Origin: a virus
Lineage: Duplodnaviria; Heunggongvirae; Uroviricota; Caudoviricetes
Virus record (IMG/VR): IMGVR_UViG_2711768067_000018
Strand: one strand, 5' to 3'
DNA: 23,081 nucleotides
Position numbers and translations under genes: made by a program. The notes under the pieces were generated by a model. That model worked only from the letters and a program-made list of their open reading frames with translations, made no database searches and had not been told where the DNA came from. Numbering within the stretch: position 1 is the stretch's first letter; every line of letters starts with the position of its first letter. Shown here piece by piece: positions 10,588 through 19,848 of this stretch.

Positions 10588-10760
10588 TGTCAGGAGTCCT
10601 GAATAGTGATTAGAGGAGTCACATGTCGGCATCAGTTTCCCGACGATGCGCATCCTCCGCCATCAGTCCCGGATGGCTTATCACTGACACAACAGCACCT
10701 TAGCGAATCGCGGGGCGCGACTCAGTAGCCTTGCCGTGTATTCATCACGGCGAGGTATTC

Positions 10761-12533
10761 ATGACCATCACCACAGACACCACTCTTTTACACGACCCGC
10801 GTCGTCAGGCGGCGCTGCTGTACTGGCAGGGATTTTCCGTGCCGCAGATTGCCGCCATGTTGCAGATGAAACGCCCGACGGTGCAGAGCTGGAAGCAGCG
10901 CGACGGCTGGGACAGCGTTGCCCCCATCAGCCGTGTCGAAATGAGTCTGGAAGCGCGGCTGACCCAGCTCATCATCAAACCGCAGAAAACCGGCGGTGAC
11001 TTCAAGGAAATTGACCTGCTCGGACGCCAGATTGAACGACTGGCACGGGTCAACCGTTACAGTCAGACCGGCAACGAGGCAGACCTTAATCCGAACGTCG
11101 CTAACCGCAACAAAGGCGGGCGTCGCAAACCGAAAAAGAATTTTTTCAGTGACGAGGCCATCGAAAAGCTGGAGCAGATTTTCTTTGAGCAGTCTTTCGA
11201 ATATCAGTTGCACTGGTATCGCGCCGGGCTTGAGCACCGCATCCGCGATATCCTGAAATCCCGCCAGATTGGCGCGACGTTTTATTTTTCCCGCGAGGCG
11301 CTGCTGCGCGCCCTGAAAACCGGTCATAACCAGATTTTTCTGTCGGCCAGTAAAACGCAGGCGTATGTGTTCCGCGAATACATCATCGCCTTTGCCCGGC
11401 TGGTTGACGTTGACCTGACCGGTGACCCGATTGCCCTGGGCAATAACGGCGCAAAACTGATTTTTCTCGGCACCAACTCCAACACCGCACAGAGCCATAA
11501 CGGCGACCTGTACGTCGACGAGATTTTCTGGATCCCGAATTTTCAGGTACTGCGTAAGGTGGCATCAGGTATGGCCTCACAGAGTCACCTGCGCTCGACC
11601 TATTTCTCCACCCCGTCCACGCTGGCGCACGACGCCTACCCGTTCTGGTCGGGGGAGCTGTTTAACCGGGGACGCGCCAGCGCCGCTGAACGCGTGGAAA
11701 TCGACGTCAGTCATAACGCCCTTGCCGGTGGGCTTCTCTGTGCGGACGGCCAGTGGCGGCAGATTGTCACCATTGAGGACGCGCTGAAAGGCGGCTGCAC
11801 GCTGTTCGACATTGAGCAGCTCAAACGTGAAAACAGCGCCGACGATTTTAAAAACCTGTTCATGTGTGAATTTGTTGACGACAAGGCGTCGGTGTTCCCG
11901 TTCGAGGAGCTGCAACGCTGCATGGTCGACACGCTGGAAGAATGGGAAGACTATGCGCCGTTTGCCGCCAATCCGTTCGGCTCCCGCCCGGTATGGATTG
12001 GTTACGACCCGTCACACCGTGGCGACAGCGCCGGATGCGTGGTACTGGCACCGCCGGTGGTGGCCGGTGGCAAATTCAGAATACTTGAGCGTCACCAGTG
12101 GAAAGGCATGGACTTTGCCACTCAGGCTGAATCCATCCGCAAACTCACTGAAAAATACAACGTCGAATACATCGGAATTGATGCCACCGGCCTCGGTGTC
12201 GGCGTGTTCCAGCTCGTGCGCTCGTTCTATCCCGCCGCGCGCGATATCCGCTACACGCCGGAAATGAAAACCGCAATGGTGCTCAAGGCCAAAGACGTCA
12301 TCCGCCGTGGCTGTCTGGAATATGACGTCAGCGCCACCGACATCACCAGCTCGTTTATGGCTATCCGCAAGACCATGACCAGCAGCGGACGCAGCGCCAC
12401 GTATGAGGCCAGCCGCAGCGAGGAAGCCAGCCACGCCGACCTCGCCTGGGCGACCATGCACGCCCTGTTAAATGAGCCACTCACCGCCGGTATCAGCACC
12501 CCGCTGACATCCACCATTCTGGAGTTTTACTGA
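10761..12533 (+). CDS. P: Terminase ATPase (large) subunit P
   Basis: Start at ATG 10761 (MTITTDTT...), preceded by GCGAGGT; 590 aa, the size of P2 gpP. The ORF-track start at 10731 is a TTG with no RBS. Transcribed divergently from O as in P2. Confidence 0.9.
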   Translation: MTITTDTTLLHDPRRQAALLYWQGFSVPQIAAMLQMKRPTVQSWKQRDGWDSVAPISRVEMSLEARLTQLIIKPQKTGGDFKEIDLLGRQIERLARVNRYSQTGNEADLNPNVANRNKGGRRKPKKNFFSDEAIEKLEQIFFEQSFEYQLHWYRAGLEHRIRDILKSRQIGATFYFSREALLRALKTGHNQIFLSASKTQAYVFREYIIAFARLVDVDLTGDPIALGNNGAKLIFLGTNSNTAQSHNGDLYVDEIFWIPNFQVLRKVASGMASQSHLRSTYFSTPSTLAHDAYPFWSGELFNRGRASAAERVEIDVSHNALAGGLLCADGQWRQIVTIEDALKGGCTLFDIEQLKRENSADDFKNLFMCEFVDDKASVFPFEELQRCMVDTLEEWEDYAPFAANPFGSRPVWIGYDPSHRGDSAGCVVLAPPVVAGGKFRILERHQWKGMDFATQAESIRKLTEKYNVEYIGIDATGLGVGVFQLVRSFYPAARDIRYTPEMKTAMVLKAKDVIRRGCLEYDVSATDITSSFMAIRKTMTSSGRSATYEASRSEEASHADLAWATMHALLNEPLTAGISTPLTSTILEFY

Positions 12534-13567
12534 TGAGCAAGAAAAAAGGGAAAACACCGCAACCTGCGGCAAAAAAAATGACCGCCAGCGCCCCGAAAAT
12601 GGAAGCATTCACCTTTGGCGAGCCGGTACCGGTACTCGACCGCCGTGACATTCTGGATTACGTCGAGTGCATCAGTAACGGCAGATGGTATGAACCACCG
12701 GTCAGCTTTACCGGTCTGGCAAAAAGCCTGCGTGCTGCCGTGCATCACAGCTCACCGATTTACGTCAAACGTAATATTCTGGCCTCAACATTTATCCCGC
12801 ATCCGTGGCTTTCCCAGCAGGATTTCAGCCGCTTTGTGCTGGATTTTCTGGTGTTCGGTAATGCGTTTCTGGAAAAGCGTTACAGCACCACCGGTAAAGT
12901 TATCAGGCTGGAAACCTCACCGGCAAAATATACCCGCCGTGGTGTGGAAGAGGATGTTTACTGGTGGGTGCCGTCCTTCAACGAGCCGACACCTTTCGCG
13001 CCCGGCTCCGTGTTTCATCTGCTGGAGCCGGATATTAATCAGGAGCTGTACGGCCTGCCGGAATATCTCAGCGCCCTTAACTCTGCCTGGCTGAATGAGT
13101 CGGCCACGCTGTTCCGCCGCAAGTATTACGAAAACGGCGCACATGCCGGATACATCATGTACGTCACCGATGCCGTGCAGGATCGCAACGATATCGAAAT
13201 GCTTCGCGAAAACATGGTTAAGTCGAAAGGCCGCAACAACTTTAAAAATCTGTTTCTCTATGCCCCGCAGGGGAAAGCTGACGGCATTAAAATTATCCCG
13301 CTCAGTGAAGTGGCAACGAAGGACGATTTTTTTAATATCAAAAAAGCCAGCGCCGCTGACCTGCTGGACGCGCACCGCATCCCCTTTCAGTTGATGGGCG
13401 GCAAGCCGGAGAACGTCGGGTCACTGGGTGATATTGAGAAAGTGGCAAAGGTCTTTGTCCGCAATGAGCTTATCCCGTTACAGGACAGGATTCGGGAAAT
13501 AAACGGCTGGCTCGGTCAGGAGGTCATCCGCTTTAAAAACTACTCACTGGACACTGACAACGGCTGA
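12533..13567 (+). CDS. Q: Portal protein Q
   Basis: 344-aa ORF, the size of P2 gpQ; its ATG overlaps the P stop (TGATG). Confidence 0.9.
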   Translation: MSKKKGKTPQPAAKKMTASAPKMEAFTFGEPVPVLDRRDILDYVECISNGRWYEPPVSFTGLAKSLRAAVHHSSPIYVKRNILASTFIPHPWLSQQDFSRFVLDFLVFGNAFLEKRYSTTGKVIRLETSPAKYTRRGVEEDVYWWVPSFNEPTPFAPGSVFHLLEPDINQELYGLPEYLSALNSAWLNESATLFRRKYYENGAHAGYIMYVTDAVQDRNDIEMLRENMVKSKGRNNFKNLFLYAPQGKADGIKIIPLSEVATKDDFFNIKKASAADLLDAHRIPFQLMGGKPENVGSLGDIEKVAKVFVRNELIPLQDRIREINGWLGQEVIRFKNYSLDTDNG

Positions 13568-13993: not shown

Positions 13994-14935
13994 ATGCAAG
14001 GTAAAGTTGACGAACAGCAATCCAATGATATTGAAGCTGAGTTTGGATACTATCCAGTAGAAGTTAACGTTGAAACTGATGATTTTTCTTTACTTACTTT
14101 ACCCGGTCTAGCGGAAAAAACAAATCTTATAAACAATCACAGAAATGTTATTAACGGTTGGATATACCCAGGAAACCAAGAAGTATATAACCTCAATGGA
14201 GGCATATCCACAATGCCTTTTAGCCAACGAGTATTTGGCTTACCCAAAACACACTCACTAAAATTAAAAAATACATCTTCACTAGAAACTCTCAATTTTG
14301 CTGTGTGGTGTCTGTCTTTTTTCAAAGGGATAAGATTAACAACTACTGATGCCGGTTTTTTAGACGCAACCCCAATAAAACCCAGCAAATTAACTGACTT
14401 TATTCTGGTCAAGTGCTCTGAAAAAGAGGTTATAGAATTAGCACTCAAATACATGTCTAGCGAGACAAAAACCAAACTCGCACCAATAAATATAGCAGCA
14501 ATAGTGCATGCACTATTTTTATCCCAAAACCCACAATACCTTAGCTTCGAAAAATTCCAGTATCTTTATATGGCACTGGATAGTTGCTTTGCTTTAACAT
14601 GGGCAGAAAAGAACAAGTGTACAGAAAAGACTCTAAATCACTCCAGGCGCTTGAAGTGGATCTGCAAAACTTATGGAATACCACGACCATCATGGGTTAC
14701 AGGCAAAAAAAACATTACAAACATCCGCAATGAAAACTTTCATGAAGCTATGTTTCATGGTCAACCACTTGGCTTTACCACTATTAACAATTATCAATAT
14801 GGAGATGACATATTACAACAAATGCAGGCTTTAATTTGCCGATTACTCGTTGCGATTCTTGGTGTTAACGCCCCCGATTACATCACATCGAACGTGAACT
14901 CTCGTGAATATCATTCACTAACATTAAAAATATAA
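13994..14935 (+). CDS. Hypothetical cargo protein (313 aa) with HEPN-like R-N-x3-H motif; candidate abortive-infection RNase
   Basis: Uninterrupted AT-rich ORF with GGAG 6 nt upstream of the ATG; motif RNENFH at residues 245-250 (nt 14726-14743); composition clearly different from the phage core. Confidence 0.6.
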   Translation: MQGKVDEQQSNDIEAEFGYYPVEVNVETDDFSLLTLPGLAEKTNLINNHRNVINGWIYPGNQEVYNLNGGISTMPFSQRVFGLPKTHSLKLKNTSSLETLNFAVWCLSFFKGIRLTTTDAGFLDATPIKPSKLTDFILVKCSEKEVIELALKYMSSETKTKLAPINIAAIVHALFLSQNPQYLSFEKFQYLYMALDSCFALTWAEKNKCTEKTLNHSRRLKWICKTYGIPRPSWVTGKKNITNIRNENFHEAMFHGQPLGFTTINNYQYGDDILQQMQALICRLLVAILGVNAPDYITSNVNSREYHSLTLKI

Positions 14936-14950
14936 AACGACTAAAAATAC

Positions 14951-14975
14951 TCTCCAGTAACAATAAGTACTGGAG
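14951..14975. terminator. Hairpin between convergent cargo genes (likely terminator, mainly for the minus-strand transcript)
   Basis: TCTCCAGTA-N8-TACTGGAGA inverted repeat (9-bp stem); a T-rich tract follows on the minus strand (tattttta). Confidence 0.45.
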
Positions 14976-15017
14976 ATGTATTATCACTAAAACCAATAAA
15001 AAATCACAACTAATGCT

Positions 15018-15617
15018 TTACTTAGATAGTTTGTCTTTAATTATATTCAGAACACCAATTATTAATTCACTGATTGGCGTGGCCAACTCAATAGTATTAG
15101 ATGTCGACTTTGTTCTAAAGTCTTTATCTGTCGGGTGTTGAAATGCTGATTTAAGAAGAGTCAAAAGCAAAGTTAAACCCACACCAAGGATGAATGCAAC
15201 AATAGCTATTAGAGAACTGGCCGATAACCAATCGGTGGATAAACCAGAAATAGATTTTCTAACTTTATTAGTGTCTGAAGATGGTGTTATCCTCTCATCA
15301 GCCATCTTCGGATCCGAAGATAAAGCAGAACATTTTTCTGCTGAAACACAAGTTTGTGTATCTACTTTTTGTGTTATCGCTGCGGCAATACTGCTTTTCG
15401 CTTCCAGCAAGCCATTTCCAACAGCCAAAGCAAAGTTAAGCCCCTGCCATAGAAATGTACAAGCAAAACAAAGCACAACGGCAGAGAGCACTAATCGCAT
15501 ACTTCTACGCTCTATACCATCCCGTCTATCTCGCCTTATAAGGATATCAGGATCTAAATCGCCCTTAGGAGTGGTTCCTTGCTCTGGGGACTGTCCAGAT
15601 AAATCAATATCAGCCAT
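15018..15617 (-). CDS. Hypothetical two-transmembrane-segment protein (199 aa); candidate membrane effector
   Basis: Two hydrophobic stretches (about residues 42-68 and 144-166) flanking a hydrophilic region, charged N-terminus; AT-rich; downstream of and co-oriented with the ImmA-like gene. Confidence 0.65.
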   Translation of the reverse strand: MADIDLSGQSPEQGTTPKGDLDPDILIRRDRRDGIERRSMRLVLSAVVLCFACTFLWQGLNFALAVGNGLLEAKSSIAAAITQKVDTQTCVSAEKCSALSSDPKMADERITPSSDTNKVRKSISGLSTDWLSASSLIAIVAFILGVGLTLLLTLLKSAFQHPTDKDFRTKSTSNTIELATPISELIIGVLNIIKDKLSK

Positions 15618-15620
15618 AAA

Positions 15621-15658
15621 AAAATCACCCTTACATGTACAAACGTAAAGGTGATTTT
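15621..15658 (-). promoter_or_regulatory. Terminator-like hairpin with U-tract that overlaps the RBS of the membrane-protein gene
   Basis: 13 of 14 bp inverted repeat AAAATCACC(C)TTAC / GTAA(A)GGTGATTTT with a 10-nt loop; on the minus strand the 3' arm (containing the GGGTGA Shine-Dalgarno-like sequence) is followed by TTTTTTT and then the ATG at 15617. Confidence 0.5.
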
Positions 15659-15683
15659 AAACAGGTTAAAAGTTAAAGGCTAA

Positions 15684-16169
15684 TTAATAAGCCATTCCTA
15701 AGCTCTTTAAGCGCCAATGCATAGCGGCTTCTGATACATTAAAGATGCTTGCTAATCTCAAAGTGCTATCAATACCTTCTCTGGATACCAATTGACGTAT
15801 AGCAGACTCAGGCATTAACAACTCAGCAGCAAACTTGTTTGCTTCAACCTCACGGTAATCACGAGCACCTGTTGAATAATTCCCGACATTATCCCGATGG
15901 TACTCTCCGTCCTGGGTATGCCCCAGCACATGATGACCTAACTCGTGTGCAACAGTAAAACGTTGACGATTAGAATGTTCACTAGAATCAAAATAAATCC
16001 TATGGACACCCTTTTTGATGACAGCCAGACCGCTTAACCCATCGTTGTTATAAGCCGATTCCTCAAGTGCTTCAACACGAGCACCCCACGCTTTAGCAAG
16101 CTTAAACGGATCGACAGGTAGTCGGCGATCCCAATAGCGGTCAAGCAGTTTTTTAGCTGCATAGCTCAT
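15684..16169 (-). CDS. ImmA/IrrE-family zinc metallopeptidase (HEXXH)
   Basis: 161-aa ORF with HELGHHVLGH (HEXXH) and a downstream EANKFAAELLMP motif typical of ImmA/IrrE (COG2856-type) peptidases; AGGAGG 5 nt upstream of the ATG. Confidence 0.85.
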   Translation of the reverse strand: MSYAAKKLLDRYWDRRLPVDPFKLAKAWGARVEALEESAYNNDGLSGLAVIKKGVHRIYFDSSEHSNRQRFTVAHELGHHVLGHTQDGEYHRDNVGNYSTGARDYREVEANKFAAELLMPESAIRQLVSREGIDSTLRLASIFNVSEAAMHWRLKSLGMAY

Positions 16170-16234: not shown

Positions 16235-16890
16235 GGCTGTTTTTCAGCCATTACTATAACACTAATCCACGTTTTCCCATAACATTTTCGACATCATATA
16301 TGCATTCAGTTCTGCATATAGAGCTTATCTTTGCTGATAACACGAGATGAATACGCGCAACCAGCCCACGATTTATAAAAAACCTTATAAATCAGAATAT
16401 TGAGTTAAAAAAACACTAACTACTTGCGCAGCGAGTTGTTAAACCTCAGCGATACTAAAAGAAAATTTCAGAGTCACCGAAGTTTCCACAGAAAACGCAA
16501 CTTAATGATTTTATTGGAATTTATGTCGCTATTTTTAATTACTTGTTTAAATCCGCCATATTGAAACTGTGCATTTCTAGCCACTCACAACTTTAAAAAA
16601 TTTACATTGCTTTCAAGACCTTATCATCCGTAGTCTCTGCTTTTTACTTTGAGCTATATCAAAAAAAGCTCAAACATCCTTGATGCAAAACCAGTATTAC
16701 ACAACATAAAATGCAACCAGAAACAACGACATACTATATGTTGTGTTGTTCAGGTCCTCTGTTCGGTGATATGCCAGATCACTTTGCGTTTAAACAGAGC
16801 ATTATTTCAGGGCAAGACTTCGCTCAATAGTCACTCCGCCTTAGAAGCGCATATATCGGCGGAAATTGCCCTCTGCTTACAGGAGGCGAT

Positions 16891-17004
16891 ATGAAGAAGT
16901 GCTATTACTGCATTCTCGTTCTGGCCCTCTTTGGCTATCCATATGGTAGTCCGAGTGGTTTGTCAGTAAACGTCAGTAATATCCATGTAAGTATTTTTCT
17001 TTAG
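16891..17004 (+). CDS. Small hydrophobic ORF (37 codons), hypothetical
   Basis: AGGAGG with a 4-nt spacer before the ATG; translation MKKCYYCILVLALFGYPYGSPSGLSVNVSNIHVSIFL; followed immediately by a strong terminator. No homology evidence available. Confidence 0.3.
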   Translation: MKKCYYCILVLALFGYPYGSPSGLSVNVSNIHVSIFL

Positions 17005-17016
17005 TATGCTTCAAAC

Positions 17017-17047
17017 AAAAAAACCACCTGCCAGGGTGGTTTTTTTG
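17017..17047. terminator. Bidirectional rho-independent terminator
   Basis: AAAAAAACCACC-TGCCAG-GGTGGTTTTTTT: stem flanked by an A-tract on one side and a T-tract on the other; located between the small plus-strand ORF and the 3' end of minus-strand gene A. Confidence 0.65.
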
Positions 17048-17306
17048 CGCCCGTCATCAATCCGATGAAAGACTAGCAAGACTTCGCTCGAGATGAATTA
17101 TGCTTCGACATAAAGTCACTCGCAATGGTTTTATTAACCGAAATAGATGCTCTTTTATGACTCGAATCAAATAGCTGCCTTCAATTACATGCTAACGATT
17201 CAATACAATTTAGCCTTCTGATTCAACACGCTATTGCTCCTCATCTACCTTAGAGGTGTTTCGCATAATCCATTCAAAGACATATAAAATCACGCTGTAT
17301 TTTTAC

Positions 17307-19583
17307 TCAAATGGATAACAAAAATCCCGGCCAATCATCAGCGACCTGATAAGTGAAAGGTTTCCCGTCATAATTTACGGTCGCGCCACGCGCCAGCGCC
17401 TCAAGCTCCCATCGTTGCGGCCTGATACCGTTCTGAGCGAGATCAACGCGGATACGGGTAATTTGCAATCGTTCCGACCGGGTCAGTCTGGCCGATGGTG
17501 CAATTTCATGCGGTTTTAACGGGCTTCCGTTTCTTTGCTGACGGTTTGGCGTTCTCCGGTCGTGTTTTAATGCGCCCCTGAGCGCCCTCACGACCTCCGG
17601 GTCATTCCATTCGATAACATCGTCATCAACCAGATTAAGCACTGCTGCGGCGTGCTCAGAAGGTGTGGGAGCCGGTAACGAAGTATCACCACCGGTGAGC
17701 TTTCCACAGTTATTGACAGGACTCCGAGGCGCGGCGATGCCGCTTTTTAAAGTCAAAGGCTCAACGACCGGAACTTTCGGCACAATGCGCCAGTCCGTCG
17801 TTCTGGTGATATGAATATGACGCGCGCCGAGATGCGGCGCGTAAATGCCGACCACTCTCTCGACTTCTTCCTCGTACTCGTTAACGTCATCCGACAGACT
17901 ACGGGCGACTCTGACAGTCTGGCAATCGCGCGGAACATTTGCCCCGCCCTGCGCGCTGATATACAGCGCAAAATCACCACTGTCTGCGGCGGCGCGTGCA
18001 GCCTCGACGCGCTCGTCAAACTCATCAGCAATGCTGACGCCGCGAGGCAATTTGCGTAGTTCACGGTAAGCCCCCATTGTCGGCAGGCCAACCGTTTTAA
18101 ATTGCGGAATGCGCCACGTTGACGCCCATGCGGTAACAGCCGCTGCAGTGTCTTTCAACGGCCTGCCGGTGTCGTTATCGAGCTGACCATCCAGTGCATA
18201 GCCGTCGATGTTTTTTGAAATGTATTTCGCGATATATCCCGCAGCACCGCCCCGGTTAAGGTGTTTTGCCTGAAAACGGTTTCGCGCGGCTCCTCTTTCG
18301 TCGCCATCCTCTTTGAGCGCATAGCGACGCATGATTTCGATAATCTGGTTACGCTGGCGTGGATGACAAAAAAGCATCATATGCCAGTGCGGCGTTCCGT
18401 CGTGGTGTGGCTCGACGACTCGCAAACCGTAGACCTGTAAATCATTATCCTTGAATGCCGTGCGCATCAGGCTCCAGATACGGCAGAGATAACGCTGCGC
18501 ATCCTTTGGATTAAATGCCTCATCGTTCCAGCCGTGATTAAGCTGAACGGTTTTACTTTCGCCTTTTCCGACCTGACGTGTCGGGTGATACTTTGACGGC
18601 GCGGTCAGCGTGATAAACATCCCCACATCACCCTCTGCGGCGGCGTAACGCTCAATACCGGCAATGGTGTTCATCAGCTCCATCCGGCGAATTTCAGGAT
18701 TAGAAATACTGCCCATCACCTTACTGATAAGGTCGATGCGCTCGCCGGTTTCCCTGTTTTCAAGGTCACACGATTTAAGAAATTCCAGATTTGCCTGGCG
18801 GCGCGCACGCACATCACGAATGGCGTGTTTACTGGCATAAGGAGAACGGTCTTTATTGACCTCCCCGACAGCTATCAGTAACGCCTCATGCCAGCGCATA
18901 CGCTGGCCTTTAAGCTGATGAGTCCACCACTCATCGTTAAACAGGCGGGCAATGGCAGAATATGCCTGCCTCGTGGTCATCTGTCCTTTACGGTATTTTT
19001 TCCAGTAGAGCGGGGAAATATTGAAAGCACGTGCAGCGCCAGCAACATGACCATACAGGTGAGCCTGCGCCTCATCCGTAAACAGCGATTCTTTTTCACC
19101 ATGCGCATCAACCCATGCATCGCAGAGTTCCTCATACATCATGAAAAGCTGCGATGAGATACGGGCGGCAAACTTTTTCAGCTCCTTGTCATTCATTCCC
19201 GGCAGGCGCGCATAGTGGTCACGCTCTGCCAGAAACAGCAACGACGCGTCGGTGTTCATTTCATGGCGCTGATTCACACGCTCAATGCGCGGCCATAAAC
19301 GACGCTGAAAAGTAGATGTGAGGAAATAAAACCCGTGCACCGGGCTTTTATTGCGCCGGATGTAGTCATAGCGTGAAGTAAACAGCGAGCGCAAAAAGTA
19401 AGGCAGGCGGTTAATCGTGGATAAAACACCTTGCACCTGACGCATCTCGTCACGTGTAAGAGGTCTTTCGCGCCCGACAGCCTCGCGTGGCGCGTTCCAT
19501 GCATAAGCACCGGTAAACGCCTTACCGGTGCCTGCGGTAAATGCTGACGGAGGGACAAAACGCCCGGAGGCTTTAACGGCCAT
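17307..19583 (-). CDS. A: Replication initiation protein A (rolling-circle nickase)
   Basis: Long ORF in the P2 gpA position; start chosen at the ATG at 19583 (MAVKASGRF...), as the ORF-track start at 19625 is a TTG. About 758 aa, close to P2 gpA. Confidence 0.9.
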   Translation of the reverse strand: MAVKASGRFVPPSAFTAGTGKAFTGAYAWNAPREAVGRERPLTRDEMRQVQGVLSTINRLPYFLRSLFTSRYDYIRRNKSPVHGFYFLTSTFQRRLWPRIERVNQRHEMNTDASLLFLAERDHYARLPGMNDKELKKFAARISSQLFMMYEELCDAWVDAHGEKESLFTDEAQAHLYGHVAGAARAFNISPLYWKKYRKGQMTTRQAYSAIARLFNDEWWTHQLKGQRMRWHEALLIAVGEVNKDRSPYASKHAIRDVRARRQANLEFLKSCDLENRETGERIDLISKVMGSISNPEIRRMELMNTIAGIERYAAAEGDVGMFITLTAPSKYHPTRQVGKGESKTVQLNHGWNDEAFNPKDAQRYLCRIWSLMRTAFKDNDLQVYGLRVVEPHHDGTPHWHMMLFCHPRQRNQIIEIMRRYALKEDGDERGAARNRFQAKHLNRGGAAGYIAKYISKNIDGYALDGQLDNDTGRPLKDTAAAVTAWASTWRIPQFKTVGLPTMGAYRELRKLPRGVSIADEFDERVEAARAAADSGDFALYISAQGGANVPRDCQTVRVARSLSDDVNEYEEEVERVVGIYAPHLGARHIHITRTTDWRIVPKVPVVEPLTLKSGIAAPRSPVNNCGKLTGGDTSLPAPTPSEHAAAVLNLVDDDVIEWNDPEVVRALRGALKHDRRTPNRQQRNGSPLKPHEIAPSARLTRSERLQITRIRVDLAQNGIRPQRWELEALARGATVNYDGKPFTYQVADDWPGFLLSI

Positions 19584-19848
19584 ATGAGCCAAAAGCCTCT
19601 GAACAACGCTTGCTGAGTTGCTCAACCTGCGCGTTTAAATCAGCAAAAGATTTTGCGCTTCCGGTCAGAATATCGTGATGCATCAGGCCGGAAACGAGCT
19701 GGCCTAATTTCGGGTAATAACCAACCACCGCCAGCCATTCCTGACCGGCGTTTTTACCGCTTTCCGCTCTCTTTTTCTCGTGGAGAATAAACTGAAAGCT
19801 GTCACTGGTAACGACATAACGTTCGCCAATTTCAATACGAATACTCAT
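19573..19848 (-). CDS. Small early protein (P2 orf83-like), hypothetical
   Basis: 91-aa ORF; its start overlaps the upstream ORF stop and its end overlaps the A start, part of the B-A operon. Confidence 0.7.
   Translation of the reverse strand: MSIRIEIGERYVVTSDSFQFILHEKKRAESGKNAGQEWLAVVGYYPKLGQLVSGLMHHDILTGSAKSFADLNAQVEQLSKRCSEAFGSYGR

Follow-up and report, generated by a model that had tools for sequence, protein, structure and literature searches.

How should a reading frame of only 37 codons, lodged between the genes of a prophage, be understood? The question is raised by the IMG/VR virus record IMGVR_UViG_2711768067_000018, a stretch of 23,081 nucleotides (hereafter the window) that corresponds to a P2-like (Peduovirus) prophage. 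On its plus strand, at positions 16891–17004, the window carries a short open reading frame (ORF) that an earlier note on this DNA had described as a small membrane-peptide gene, either type I toxin-like or regulatory. The analysis presented here indicates that this ORF is almost certainly a genuine protein-coding gene under purifying selection, that it belongs to a conserved and mobile cassette, and that a candidate small RNA (sRNA) encoded convergently in the same cassette is complementary to the leader of the peptide mRNA. We consider it probable, though well short of assured, that the cassette represents a new family of type I toxin-antitoxin (TA)-like module.

Direct reading of the sequence bears out the layout first reported for the ORF. 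A Shine-Dalgarno (SD) sequence, AGGAGG, at 16881–16886 is followed by a 4-nt spacer and by the ATG at 16891, and the frame closes with a TAG stop codon at 17002–17004. The translation is MKKCYYCILVLALFGYPYGSPSGLSVNVSNIHVSIFL. The hydrophobic N-terminal half that had been claimed corresponds to residues 4–15, with a mean Kyte-Doolittle value of 2.2 in this peptide and of 1.8–2.9 across 8 lineages. Relatives from diverged lineages, exemplified by MKRLSYCIILLTLLGYPLGSQSGWSVDISNISVSIVM and MNRVCLCILVLTLFGYPVGSQSGWSIYVSHINVNISL, show the same residue pattern, for which the family consensus is M-[KN]-[KR]-x-x-x-C-I-[LI]-[VL]-L-[AT]-L-x-G-Y-P-x-G-x-x-S-x-x-S, and they share a conserved polar C-terminal motif, GYPxGSxSGxSxxxS. 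At a family size of 37–38 amino acids (aa), these are small (<60 aa) hydrophobic peptides of the kind that type I toxins are known to be.

The strong bidirectional terminator described behind the ORF lies at 17017–17046 and is evident both from the sequence and from folding. It consists of an A7 tract (17017–17023), a stem-loop with a G+C stem of 5–6 bp (CCACCTGCCAGGGTGG, 17024–17039) and a T7 tract (17040–17046), and it reads as an intrinsic terminator on the plus and on the minus strand. Only the gap of 13 nt given by the earlier note between stop codon and terminator needs correction, since 12 nt separate the stop codon from the A-tract and 19 nt separate it from the G+C stem. Among aligned lineages the terminator is invariant except for one loop base in Citrobacter. 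A simple terminator scan did not list the site, probably because the A/T tracts lengthen the stem and consume the T-run; the hairpin is plain on folding. The same hairpin is near-identical to a ColE1-type RNAI/ori hairpin in an unrelated contig (L041, 5921–5946), a likeness that explains a weak Rfam match to RNAI (27.8 bits vs a gathering score of 47).

Several lines of evidence argue that the ORF is a gene. Distant copies were recovered by pattern scans and protein searches from an IMG/VR contig (L040), Kluyvera georgiana (L042), Citrobacter freundii (L043), a metagenome (L059), and Klebsiella plasmids (L062 and L063). Three matches came from a protein database search in which the query was the peptide extended by five upstream in-frame residues, and four further short relatives from an all-against-representatives HMMER search. 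A contig scan with a strict peptide-derived pattern gave no match; scanning contigs with the promoter and seed pattern of the sRNA (see below) retrieved the Kluyvera and Citrobacter copies. The frame is intact in all 53 loci recovered by an N-terminal DNA pattern, its length stays at 37–38 codons in nine diverged lineages (from E. coli, Klebsiella, Kluyvera, Citrobacter, and metagenomes), and it is the sole one of the six frames to be free of stops across 8 diverged lineages. Among 35 unique E. coli-type and IMG/VR sequences, the 13 variable columns of the ORF fall at codon position 3 in 10 cases, at position 1 in 3, and at position 2 in none, and the stop codon is either TAG or TAA; no such periodicity appears in the neighbouring non-coding columns. 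Between lineages, nucleotide identity of the ORF is 67–78% and the ratio of non-synonymous to synonymous substitution rates (dN/dS) is 0.13–0.35. The SD is kept as AGGAGG, GGGAGG, or AGGTGG. The view that the feature did not arise by chance thus finds support in the conservation of the frame and in its codon-position bias, and the failure of that frame in homologous loci, which the earlier note had named among the results that would count against it, was seen in none of the homologs found. PGAP annotates the ORF in 0 of 150 E. coli genomes that have the region, and one phage record calls it hypothetical.

An ORF of 39 aa located upstream (16711–16830) shares the frame of the peptide, with a single TAG (16828–16830) between the two. 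A second E. coli haplotype (L044, L045, and others) is devoid of that TAG, and gene callers accordingly emit a leader-peptide fusion of 88 aa (database entry P0004). This extended ORF was considered as a real gene and rejected, as stops occur in the linker in other lineages; because the linker shows no coding signature and no codon periodicity, the fusion is, on this comparison, an annotation artefact.

The earlier note had advised a search for a small RNA on the opposite strand, and the region downstream of the ORF answers it. A candidate antitoxin sRNA promoter, found by consensus scan, is located on the minus strand at 17125–17097, with TTGCGA as –35 (17125–17120), a 17-nt spacer, and CATAAT as –10 (17102–17097), preceded by AATAAA. 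Comparison of 9 lineages shows no change in the –10, A or G at the last base of the –35 (TTGCG[A/G]), and a spacer of constant length (17 nt) but variable sequence. Fixed hexamers over a free spacer are the signature expected of a functioning promoter. From a predicted start at about G17089, a candidate sRNA of about 75 nt (17089–17015, minus strand) would end at the shared terminator. Its minimum free energy (MFE) is –31.6 kcal/mol, with z = –4.81. It would comprise a 5' seed, GAGCGAAGUCUUGC (the reverse complement of 17076–17089), a middle hairpin (17049–17073), and the terminator hairpin with its U-tract. The middle hairpin is present in every lineage, with a different sequence each time, and in 6 of 8 lineages it is 3–6 kcal/mol stabler as minus strand, a preference that is due to G·U pairs.

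The seed also connects the candidate sRNA to the peptide mRNA. A 14-nt direct repeat, GCAAGACTTCGCTC, is found twice in the window without a mismatch, at 16812–16825 on the plus strand (66–79 nt upstream of the AUG) and at 17076–17089, vs 0.19 matches expected. Since the 5' tail of the sRNA is the reverse complement of this repeat, it is complementary to the plus-strand RNA at the first copy. In 9 of 9 lineages the sRNA and the leader can form a helix of 14–18 bp. All internal differences between the two repeats give G·U pairs when read as plus-strand mRNA against minus-strand sRNA, whereas the opposite orientation would give C·A, and in L059 the same G-to-A change is found in both repeats. 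In every lineage tested, the target site is the best duplex that the sRNA 5' end can form in the leader, stronger than 200 of 200 shuffles per lineage. Part of the first repeat falls in the loop of a small hairpin (16816–16832), where the sRNA tail could plausibly nucleate pairing. An adjacent small RNA gene complementary to the toxin mRNA, as type I TA systems possess, is therefore found here, in silico only.

The leader itself appears to be a structured RNA. A promoter-like element for the peptide mRNA is found on the plus strand at 16684–16712 (TGCAAA at 16684–16689, a 17-nt spacer, and TAAAAT at 16707–16712), and its hexamers are fixed (TGCAAA; TA[A/G]AAT) over a variable 17-nt spacer in 9 lineages. 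With a predicted start at about 16719 and an end at the terminator, the putative toxin mRNA would measure about 330 nt (16719–17046); its MFE is –97.3 kcal/mol, with z = –3.58 vs shuffles. A consensus fold of this mRNA covers the 9 lineages; in an 11-sequence alignment, the consensus structure comprises five helices in the leader, with 96.7% of cells paired. Compensatory double changes affect 8 leader pairs, compared with 1.9±1.0 in shuffles (0/500) and 0–3 with slid partners. Stem-loop (SL) 2 of the 5' untranslated region (5'UTR; 16757–16799), CTCTGTT...AACAGAG around GGTGAT...ATCACT, has five compensatory pairs and 100% of cells paired, and its invariant G·U pair marks the plus strand as the one that folds. 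SL4 (16835–16863) combines a covarying stem, in which GC, AU, and UA are found at the same pair, with a near-invariant loop, GAAGCGCATATA (16844–16855). No complementary partner was found for this conserved loop (GAAGCGCAKATA, i.e. GAAGCGCA(G/T)ATA), for which protein binding, a standby function, or pairing in a pseudoknot would be conceivable roles. The last helix joins a conserved GCCC(U/C) block to the SD: the anti-SD GCCCTCTG pairs with AGGAGG (16881–16886) in a hairpin at 16868–16886, predicted in the consensus of the 11 sequences, in which 92.6% of cells are paired. Sequestration of the SD in a folded toxin mRNA, another trait of type I TA systems, is thus predicted here by the consensus anti-SD/SD helix and the covarying hairpins.

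Five-way and nine-way alignments, in which homology persists while the flanks change, place the limits of the whole cassette at about 16594 and 17135, that is, about 540 bp covering both strands. Its flanks are unrelated among carriers. In E. coli the flank is the P2 gene A; in L040 the presence of a protelomerase (TelK), a Toprim RepA, and a CI repressor points to an N15-like telomere phage; Zot, a secretin, and G2P beside the cassette in L042 and L059 point to filamentous (inovirus) prophages; and in L062 and L063 it is conjugative IncFIB/IncFII plasmid DNA. Judging by these alignments, the cassette travels whole among P2-like prophages, filamentous prophages, an N15-like telomere phage, and IncF plasmids of Klebsiella. 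It is found beside gene A in 150 of 5426 complete E. coli genomes; as about 1713 of those genomes have a P2-like gene A, the cassette is accessory cargo and not phage backbone. Canonical P2 has no trace of it, and orf91-tin-old sits at that place. In PLSDB, 419 plasmids carry the cassette, 392 of them from Klebsiella and mostly of the conjugative IncFIB/IncFII type, and annotation of the cassette is found in none of the 419. Of the earlier description, the peptide gene is supported as genuine and under selection. The structured leader and the carriage on plasmids and several phage types, which is usual for TA modules, agree with the type I reading; toxicity, a membrane location, and repression by the RNA keep the standing of proposals.

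Two further copies deserve mention. In L061 (500–2277), a contig present in 8 samples, the cassette is shortened: the N-terminus of the peptide runs on into unrelated sequence (71-aa P0003), and immediately downstream come a P2-type C repressor and integrase, next to yegR-yegS; this copy appears to be a deleted prophage remnant. L009 (NZ_CP026085.1), labelled E. coli DH5alpha, harbours a P2-like prophage that looks complete and includes both the cassette and an AAA-ATPase cargo, which is unexpected in a K-12 derivative and may reflect strain mislabelling or contamination.

Within the window, the late and capsid genes, the terminase (10731–12533), and the portal gene (12533–13567) are located on one side of the cassette, and the replication endonuclease gene A (17307–19625, minus strand) on the other. 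The cassette consequently sits in the gpQ-cos-gpA interval, a variable anti-phage hotspot of P2-like phages (Rousset et al., PMC9122126). Of the 38 P2-like loci in which the portal gene is included, 13 have the cassette as the sole hotspot content, with 668–766 nt between the portal stop and the peptide ATG. In L007 (4128–5207), L008, and 11 further loci, the portal-to-gene-A interval thus consists of cos plus the cassette alone. Such hotspots, gene-less to protein-based surveys, are in fact occupied. The hotspot of the window has additional cargo at 13994–16169, namely a 313-aa ORF on the plus strand (phrog_5937, no Pfam match) and, on the minus strand, a predicted membrane ORF of 199 aa (phrog_8096) and an ImmA/IrrE M78 peptidase of 161 aa (PADLOC capP-like, 1e-30). 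These three ORFs look like an uncharacterised candidate defence trio, and they are found again, complete or reduced to two genes, in other P2-like prophages (L001, L005, and L006).

How might such a cassette work? A weak constitutive promoter (about 16684–16712) would produce the mRNA of about 330 nt, whose leader of about 170 nt would fold into the conserved hairpins, the last of them hiding the SD, so that the 37-aa peptide would be poorly translated. The peptide is proposed to join a hydrophobic, signal-anchor-like N-terminal half to a conserved polar and beta-like C-terminal half. The convergent promoter (17125–17097) would produce the sRNA of about 75 nt, ending at the common bidirectional terminator, and its single-stranded 5' end would pair over 14–18 bp with the leader at 16812–16825. 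The presumed effect of this pairing is either that a standby or activating element is blocked or that cleavage follows, and the peptide would stay off. Since the site is far from the ribosome-binding site, repression would probably resemble that of tisB/IstR-1, zorO/OrzO, or timP/TimR and not direct occlusion. Upon loss of the cassette or shut-off of transcription, for example by an infecting phage, the sRNA would decay first, the stabler mRNA would be translated, and a membrane-active peptide would be made. The outcome could be plasmid or prophage addiction and/or abortive infection, a scheme that would fit carriage on plasmids and residence in a phage defence hotspot. More tentatively, the cassette might be a stand-alone type I TA family, the first enterobacterial one with a par/Fst-like convergent architecture: a minimal abortive-infection or addiction device that is the sole occupant of seemingly empty P2 hotspots and a stabiliser of Klebsiella IncF plasmids, and that kills via its beta-like C-terminal motif and not via a classic transmembrane helix. 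This fuller version is possible, and we would not expect all of it to hold.

A number of observations weigh against a type I TA-like module. The plus-strand promoter is weak, with a –35 that matches at 3 of 6 positions, and it was not called by the consensus scan; owing to this poor –35, the element is the weakest link of the model. The hydrophobic stretch extends over only about 12–13 residues and the C-terminal half is polar, whereas classic type I toxins have a transmembrane segment plus a charged tail, and an AlphaFold model of the peptide is uninformative, with a predicted local distance difference test (pLDDT) score of 57. With the sRNA site 66–79 nt from the AUG, a route to translational repression is not evident from the sequence. 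In an L004-type E. coli sublineage, changes shorten the duplex by 1 bp and break one pair of SL3. No known toxin or antitoxin family in Rfam, Pfam, PHROGs, PADLOC, or NCBIfam matches the peptide or the RNA. Finally, the cassette was not seen in the read parts of pKPN3 in the transcriptome of K. pneumoniae MGH78578, the sole transcriptome checked. The MGH78578 sRNAs KpnR_127 and KpnR_128 adjoin a hok gene and not the cassette. In L064 (10983–11225, equivalent to pKPN3 50982–51224), the Hfq-bound sRNA candidate KpnR_124 (PMC10907235) overlaps an annotated, very basic hypothetical ORF of 43 aa; this locus, unrelated to the cassette, may be another small-protein/RNA locus.

The alternative that survives best is that the peptide is a genuine but non-toxic small membrane protein, such as a modulator of a host membrane complex or a factor of superinfection exclusion or entry exclusion, whose expression the convergent sRNA would tune with neither addiction nor abortive infection. 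Purifying selection extends over the whole peptide, including its polar motif, which suggests a specific partner and not generic membrane damage. Moreover, endogenous expression of TimP, the closest analogue, still allows growth after deletion of timR (PMC7667032). However, the sequestered SD, the long structured leader, the dedicated neighbouring sRNA with its 5' seed, and carriage on plasmids and on four kinds of mobile element together are a hallmark of type I TA systems. We know of no benign small protein on mobile elements that comes with such a full package, and we regard this alternative as unlikely, if by no means negligible.

A second alternative is that the cassette is a very distant member of timP/TimR (ryfA), captured by mobile elements and rearranged. 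In peptide style and host range, this system of Salmonella and E. coli is the nearest known. TimP is an enterobacterial peptide of 38–41 aa whose N-terminal part is hydrophobic and signal-sequence-like and whose C-terminal part is polar, and the 5' end of its sRNA pairs with the 5'UTR of a structured leader in which the SD is sequestered (PMC7667032, PMC13000454). Size and style are thus shared, as are an N-terminus of the type MKxxx[FY]CI[VL][LV][IL] and, in both systems, pairing of the sRNA 5' end with the 5'UTR (PMC7667032). E. coli TimP (MKIRCFCIVLIV...) resembles the family peptides over the first 11 residues, and hhalign aligned residues 1–11 with a pairwise E-value of 0.0076 but a probability of 5%. 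The NCBIfam TimP model (NF040796), which scores 86.8 bits on E. coli TimP, recognised 0 of 7 family peptides at E ≤ 10, BLASTP gave no match, and Rfam RyfA (RF00126, accession as cited in PMC7667032) had no match at the gathering threshold or at E ≤ 10. Homology to TimP was rejected after the NCBIfam, BLASTP, and hhalign results. The two systems also differ in location and gene order: timPR has its place in the core chromosome, between sseA and sseB, and its sRNA is encoded upstream in divergent orientation (K-12 layout), whereas the cassette is mobile, its genes being convergent on a common terminator. Kinship with TimP is accordingly improbable.

The weakest alternative is that the ORF is incidental. 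The region would then be phage DNA without coding function, made up of a hotspot boundary or recombination sequence and of the terminator that closes the early (gene A) operon of P2, or else the leader peptide of an attenuator. In favour of this reading, the terminator is located downstream of gene A at a distance of 260 nt, where the operon would end, PGAP annotation is lacking in the 150 genomes, and the hairpin gives weak Rfam matches to Phe_leader and RNAI. The attenuator was nevertheless rejected, as a convergent promoter and no plus-strand gene follows; canonical P2 manages without the cassette; and the coding signature (codon-position bias and low dN/dS) together with the occurrence of the cassette without gene A, on plasmids and other phage types, excludes this reading in practice.

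The type I TA-like reading is thus the one we retain. If confirmed, it would enlarge the small set of enterobacterial type I TA systems by a new toxin/sRNA family, and it would mean that a functional RNA-based module, invisible to searches of the PGAP, DefenseFinder, or PADLOC type, can reside in P2-like hotspots that are counted as empty or intergenic. About 400 sequenced conjugative plasmids of Klebsiella, many of them of the resistance-carrying IncFIB/IncFII type, would then harbour a maintenance or defence element that has escaped annotation. The spread of the cassette over P2-like, N15-like, and filamentous phages and over plasmids is a tidy case of a sub-kilobase selfish module crossing unrelated mobile elements.

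How, then, does the cassette relate to the systems already described? Besides the searches with TimP and RyfA, the Rfam scan at the gathering threshold and at E ≤ 10 gave nothing but sub-threshold matches that stem from the terminator hairpin (RNAI, Phe_leader, STnc130, and others), the Pfam scan of the peptide at E ≤ 1 gave nothing, including no Hok_Gef, and the anti-phage defence models of PADLOC did not match the peptide. Exact sequence strings retrieved no earlier description from the open literature, which was covered incompletely, and the papers on P2 hotspots mention no small RNA or type I TA system at this locus. Because the TimP model, BLASTP, Rfam RyfA, Hok, Pfam, and PADLOC all fail, the cassette is provisionally filed as a new family of a known kind, one that seems to stand outside every named family tried.

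The hok/sok systems of F-like plasmids resemble the cassette in having a small membrane peptide under the control of a small RNA, a highly folded mRNA, and conjugative plasmids as carriers. They differ in that the cassette has neither a Hok_Gef Pfam match nor a mok-like overlapping frame, and in that its sRNA is not antisense to the leader. Another likeness is seen with zorO/orzO, tisB/istR-1, dinQ/agrB, and shoB/ohsC of E. coli, in which, as in the cassette, the antitoxin is a separate neighbouring sRNA and not a true antisense RNA. The sRNAs of the zorO/orzO type pair over about 16–30 nt with a long 5'UTR, far upstream of the ribosome-binding site (PMC3919570, PMC8594479), and their genes lie 5' of the toxin gene with no overlap (PMC8594479). 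By contrast, the sRNA gene of the cassette is located 3' of the peptide gene, converges with it, and overlaps its predicted transcript at the terminator, and the peptides are unrelated.

Architecture is where the closest counterparts are found, and these are par (Fst/RNA II) of the Enterococcus faecalis plasmid pAD1 and SprA1/SprA1as of S. aureus. In par, the two RNAs pair by way of direct DNA repeats near their 5' ends, and the cassette would follow the same principle with its 5' direct repeats at 16812–16825 and 17076–17089. The par repeats, however, cover the translation initiation region of fst, whereas the single repeat in the leader of the cassette lies 66–79 nt upstream of the AUG. The hosts of par and SprA1 are Gram-positive, and their peptides are unrelated to that of the cassette, for which no Pfam or other family match was obtained. 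In both of these systems the toxin and antitoxin RNAs are convergent and have a common terminator, with functional pairing outside the overlap (PMC8594479). The cassette is alike in its convergent RNAs and common bidirectional terminator, and it shares with par and SprA1 a small hydrophobic peptide, the toxin in those systems, and carriage on plasmids.

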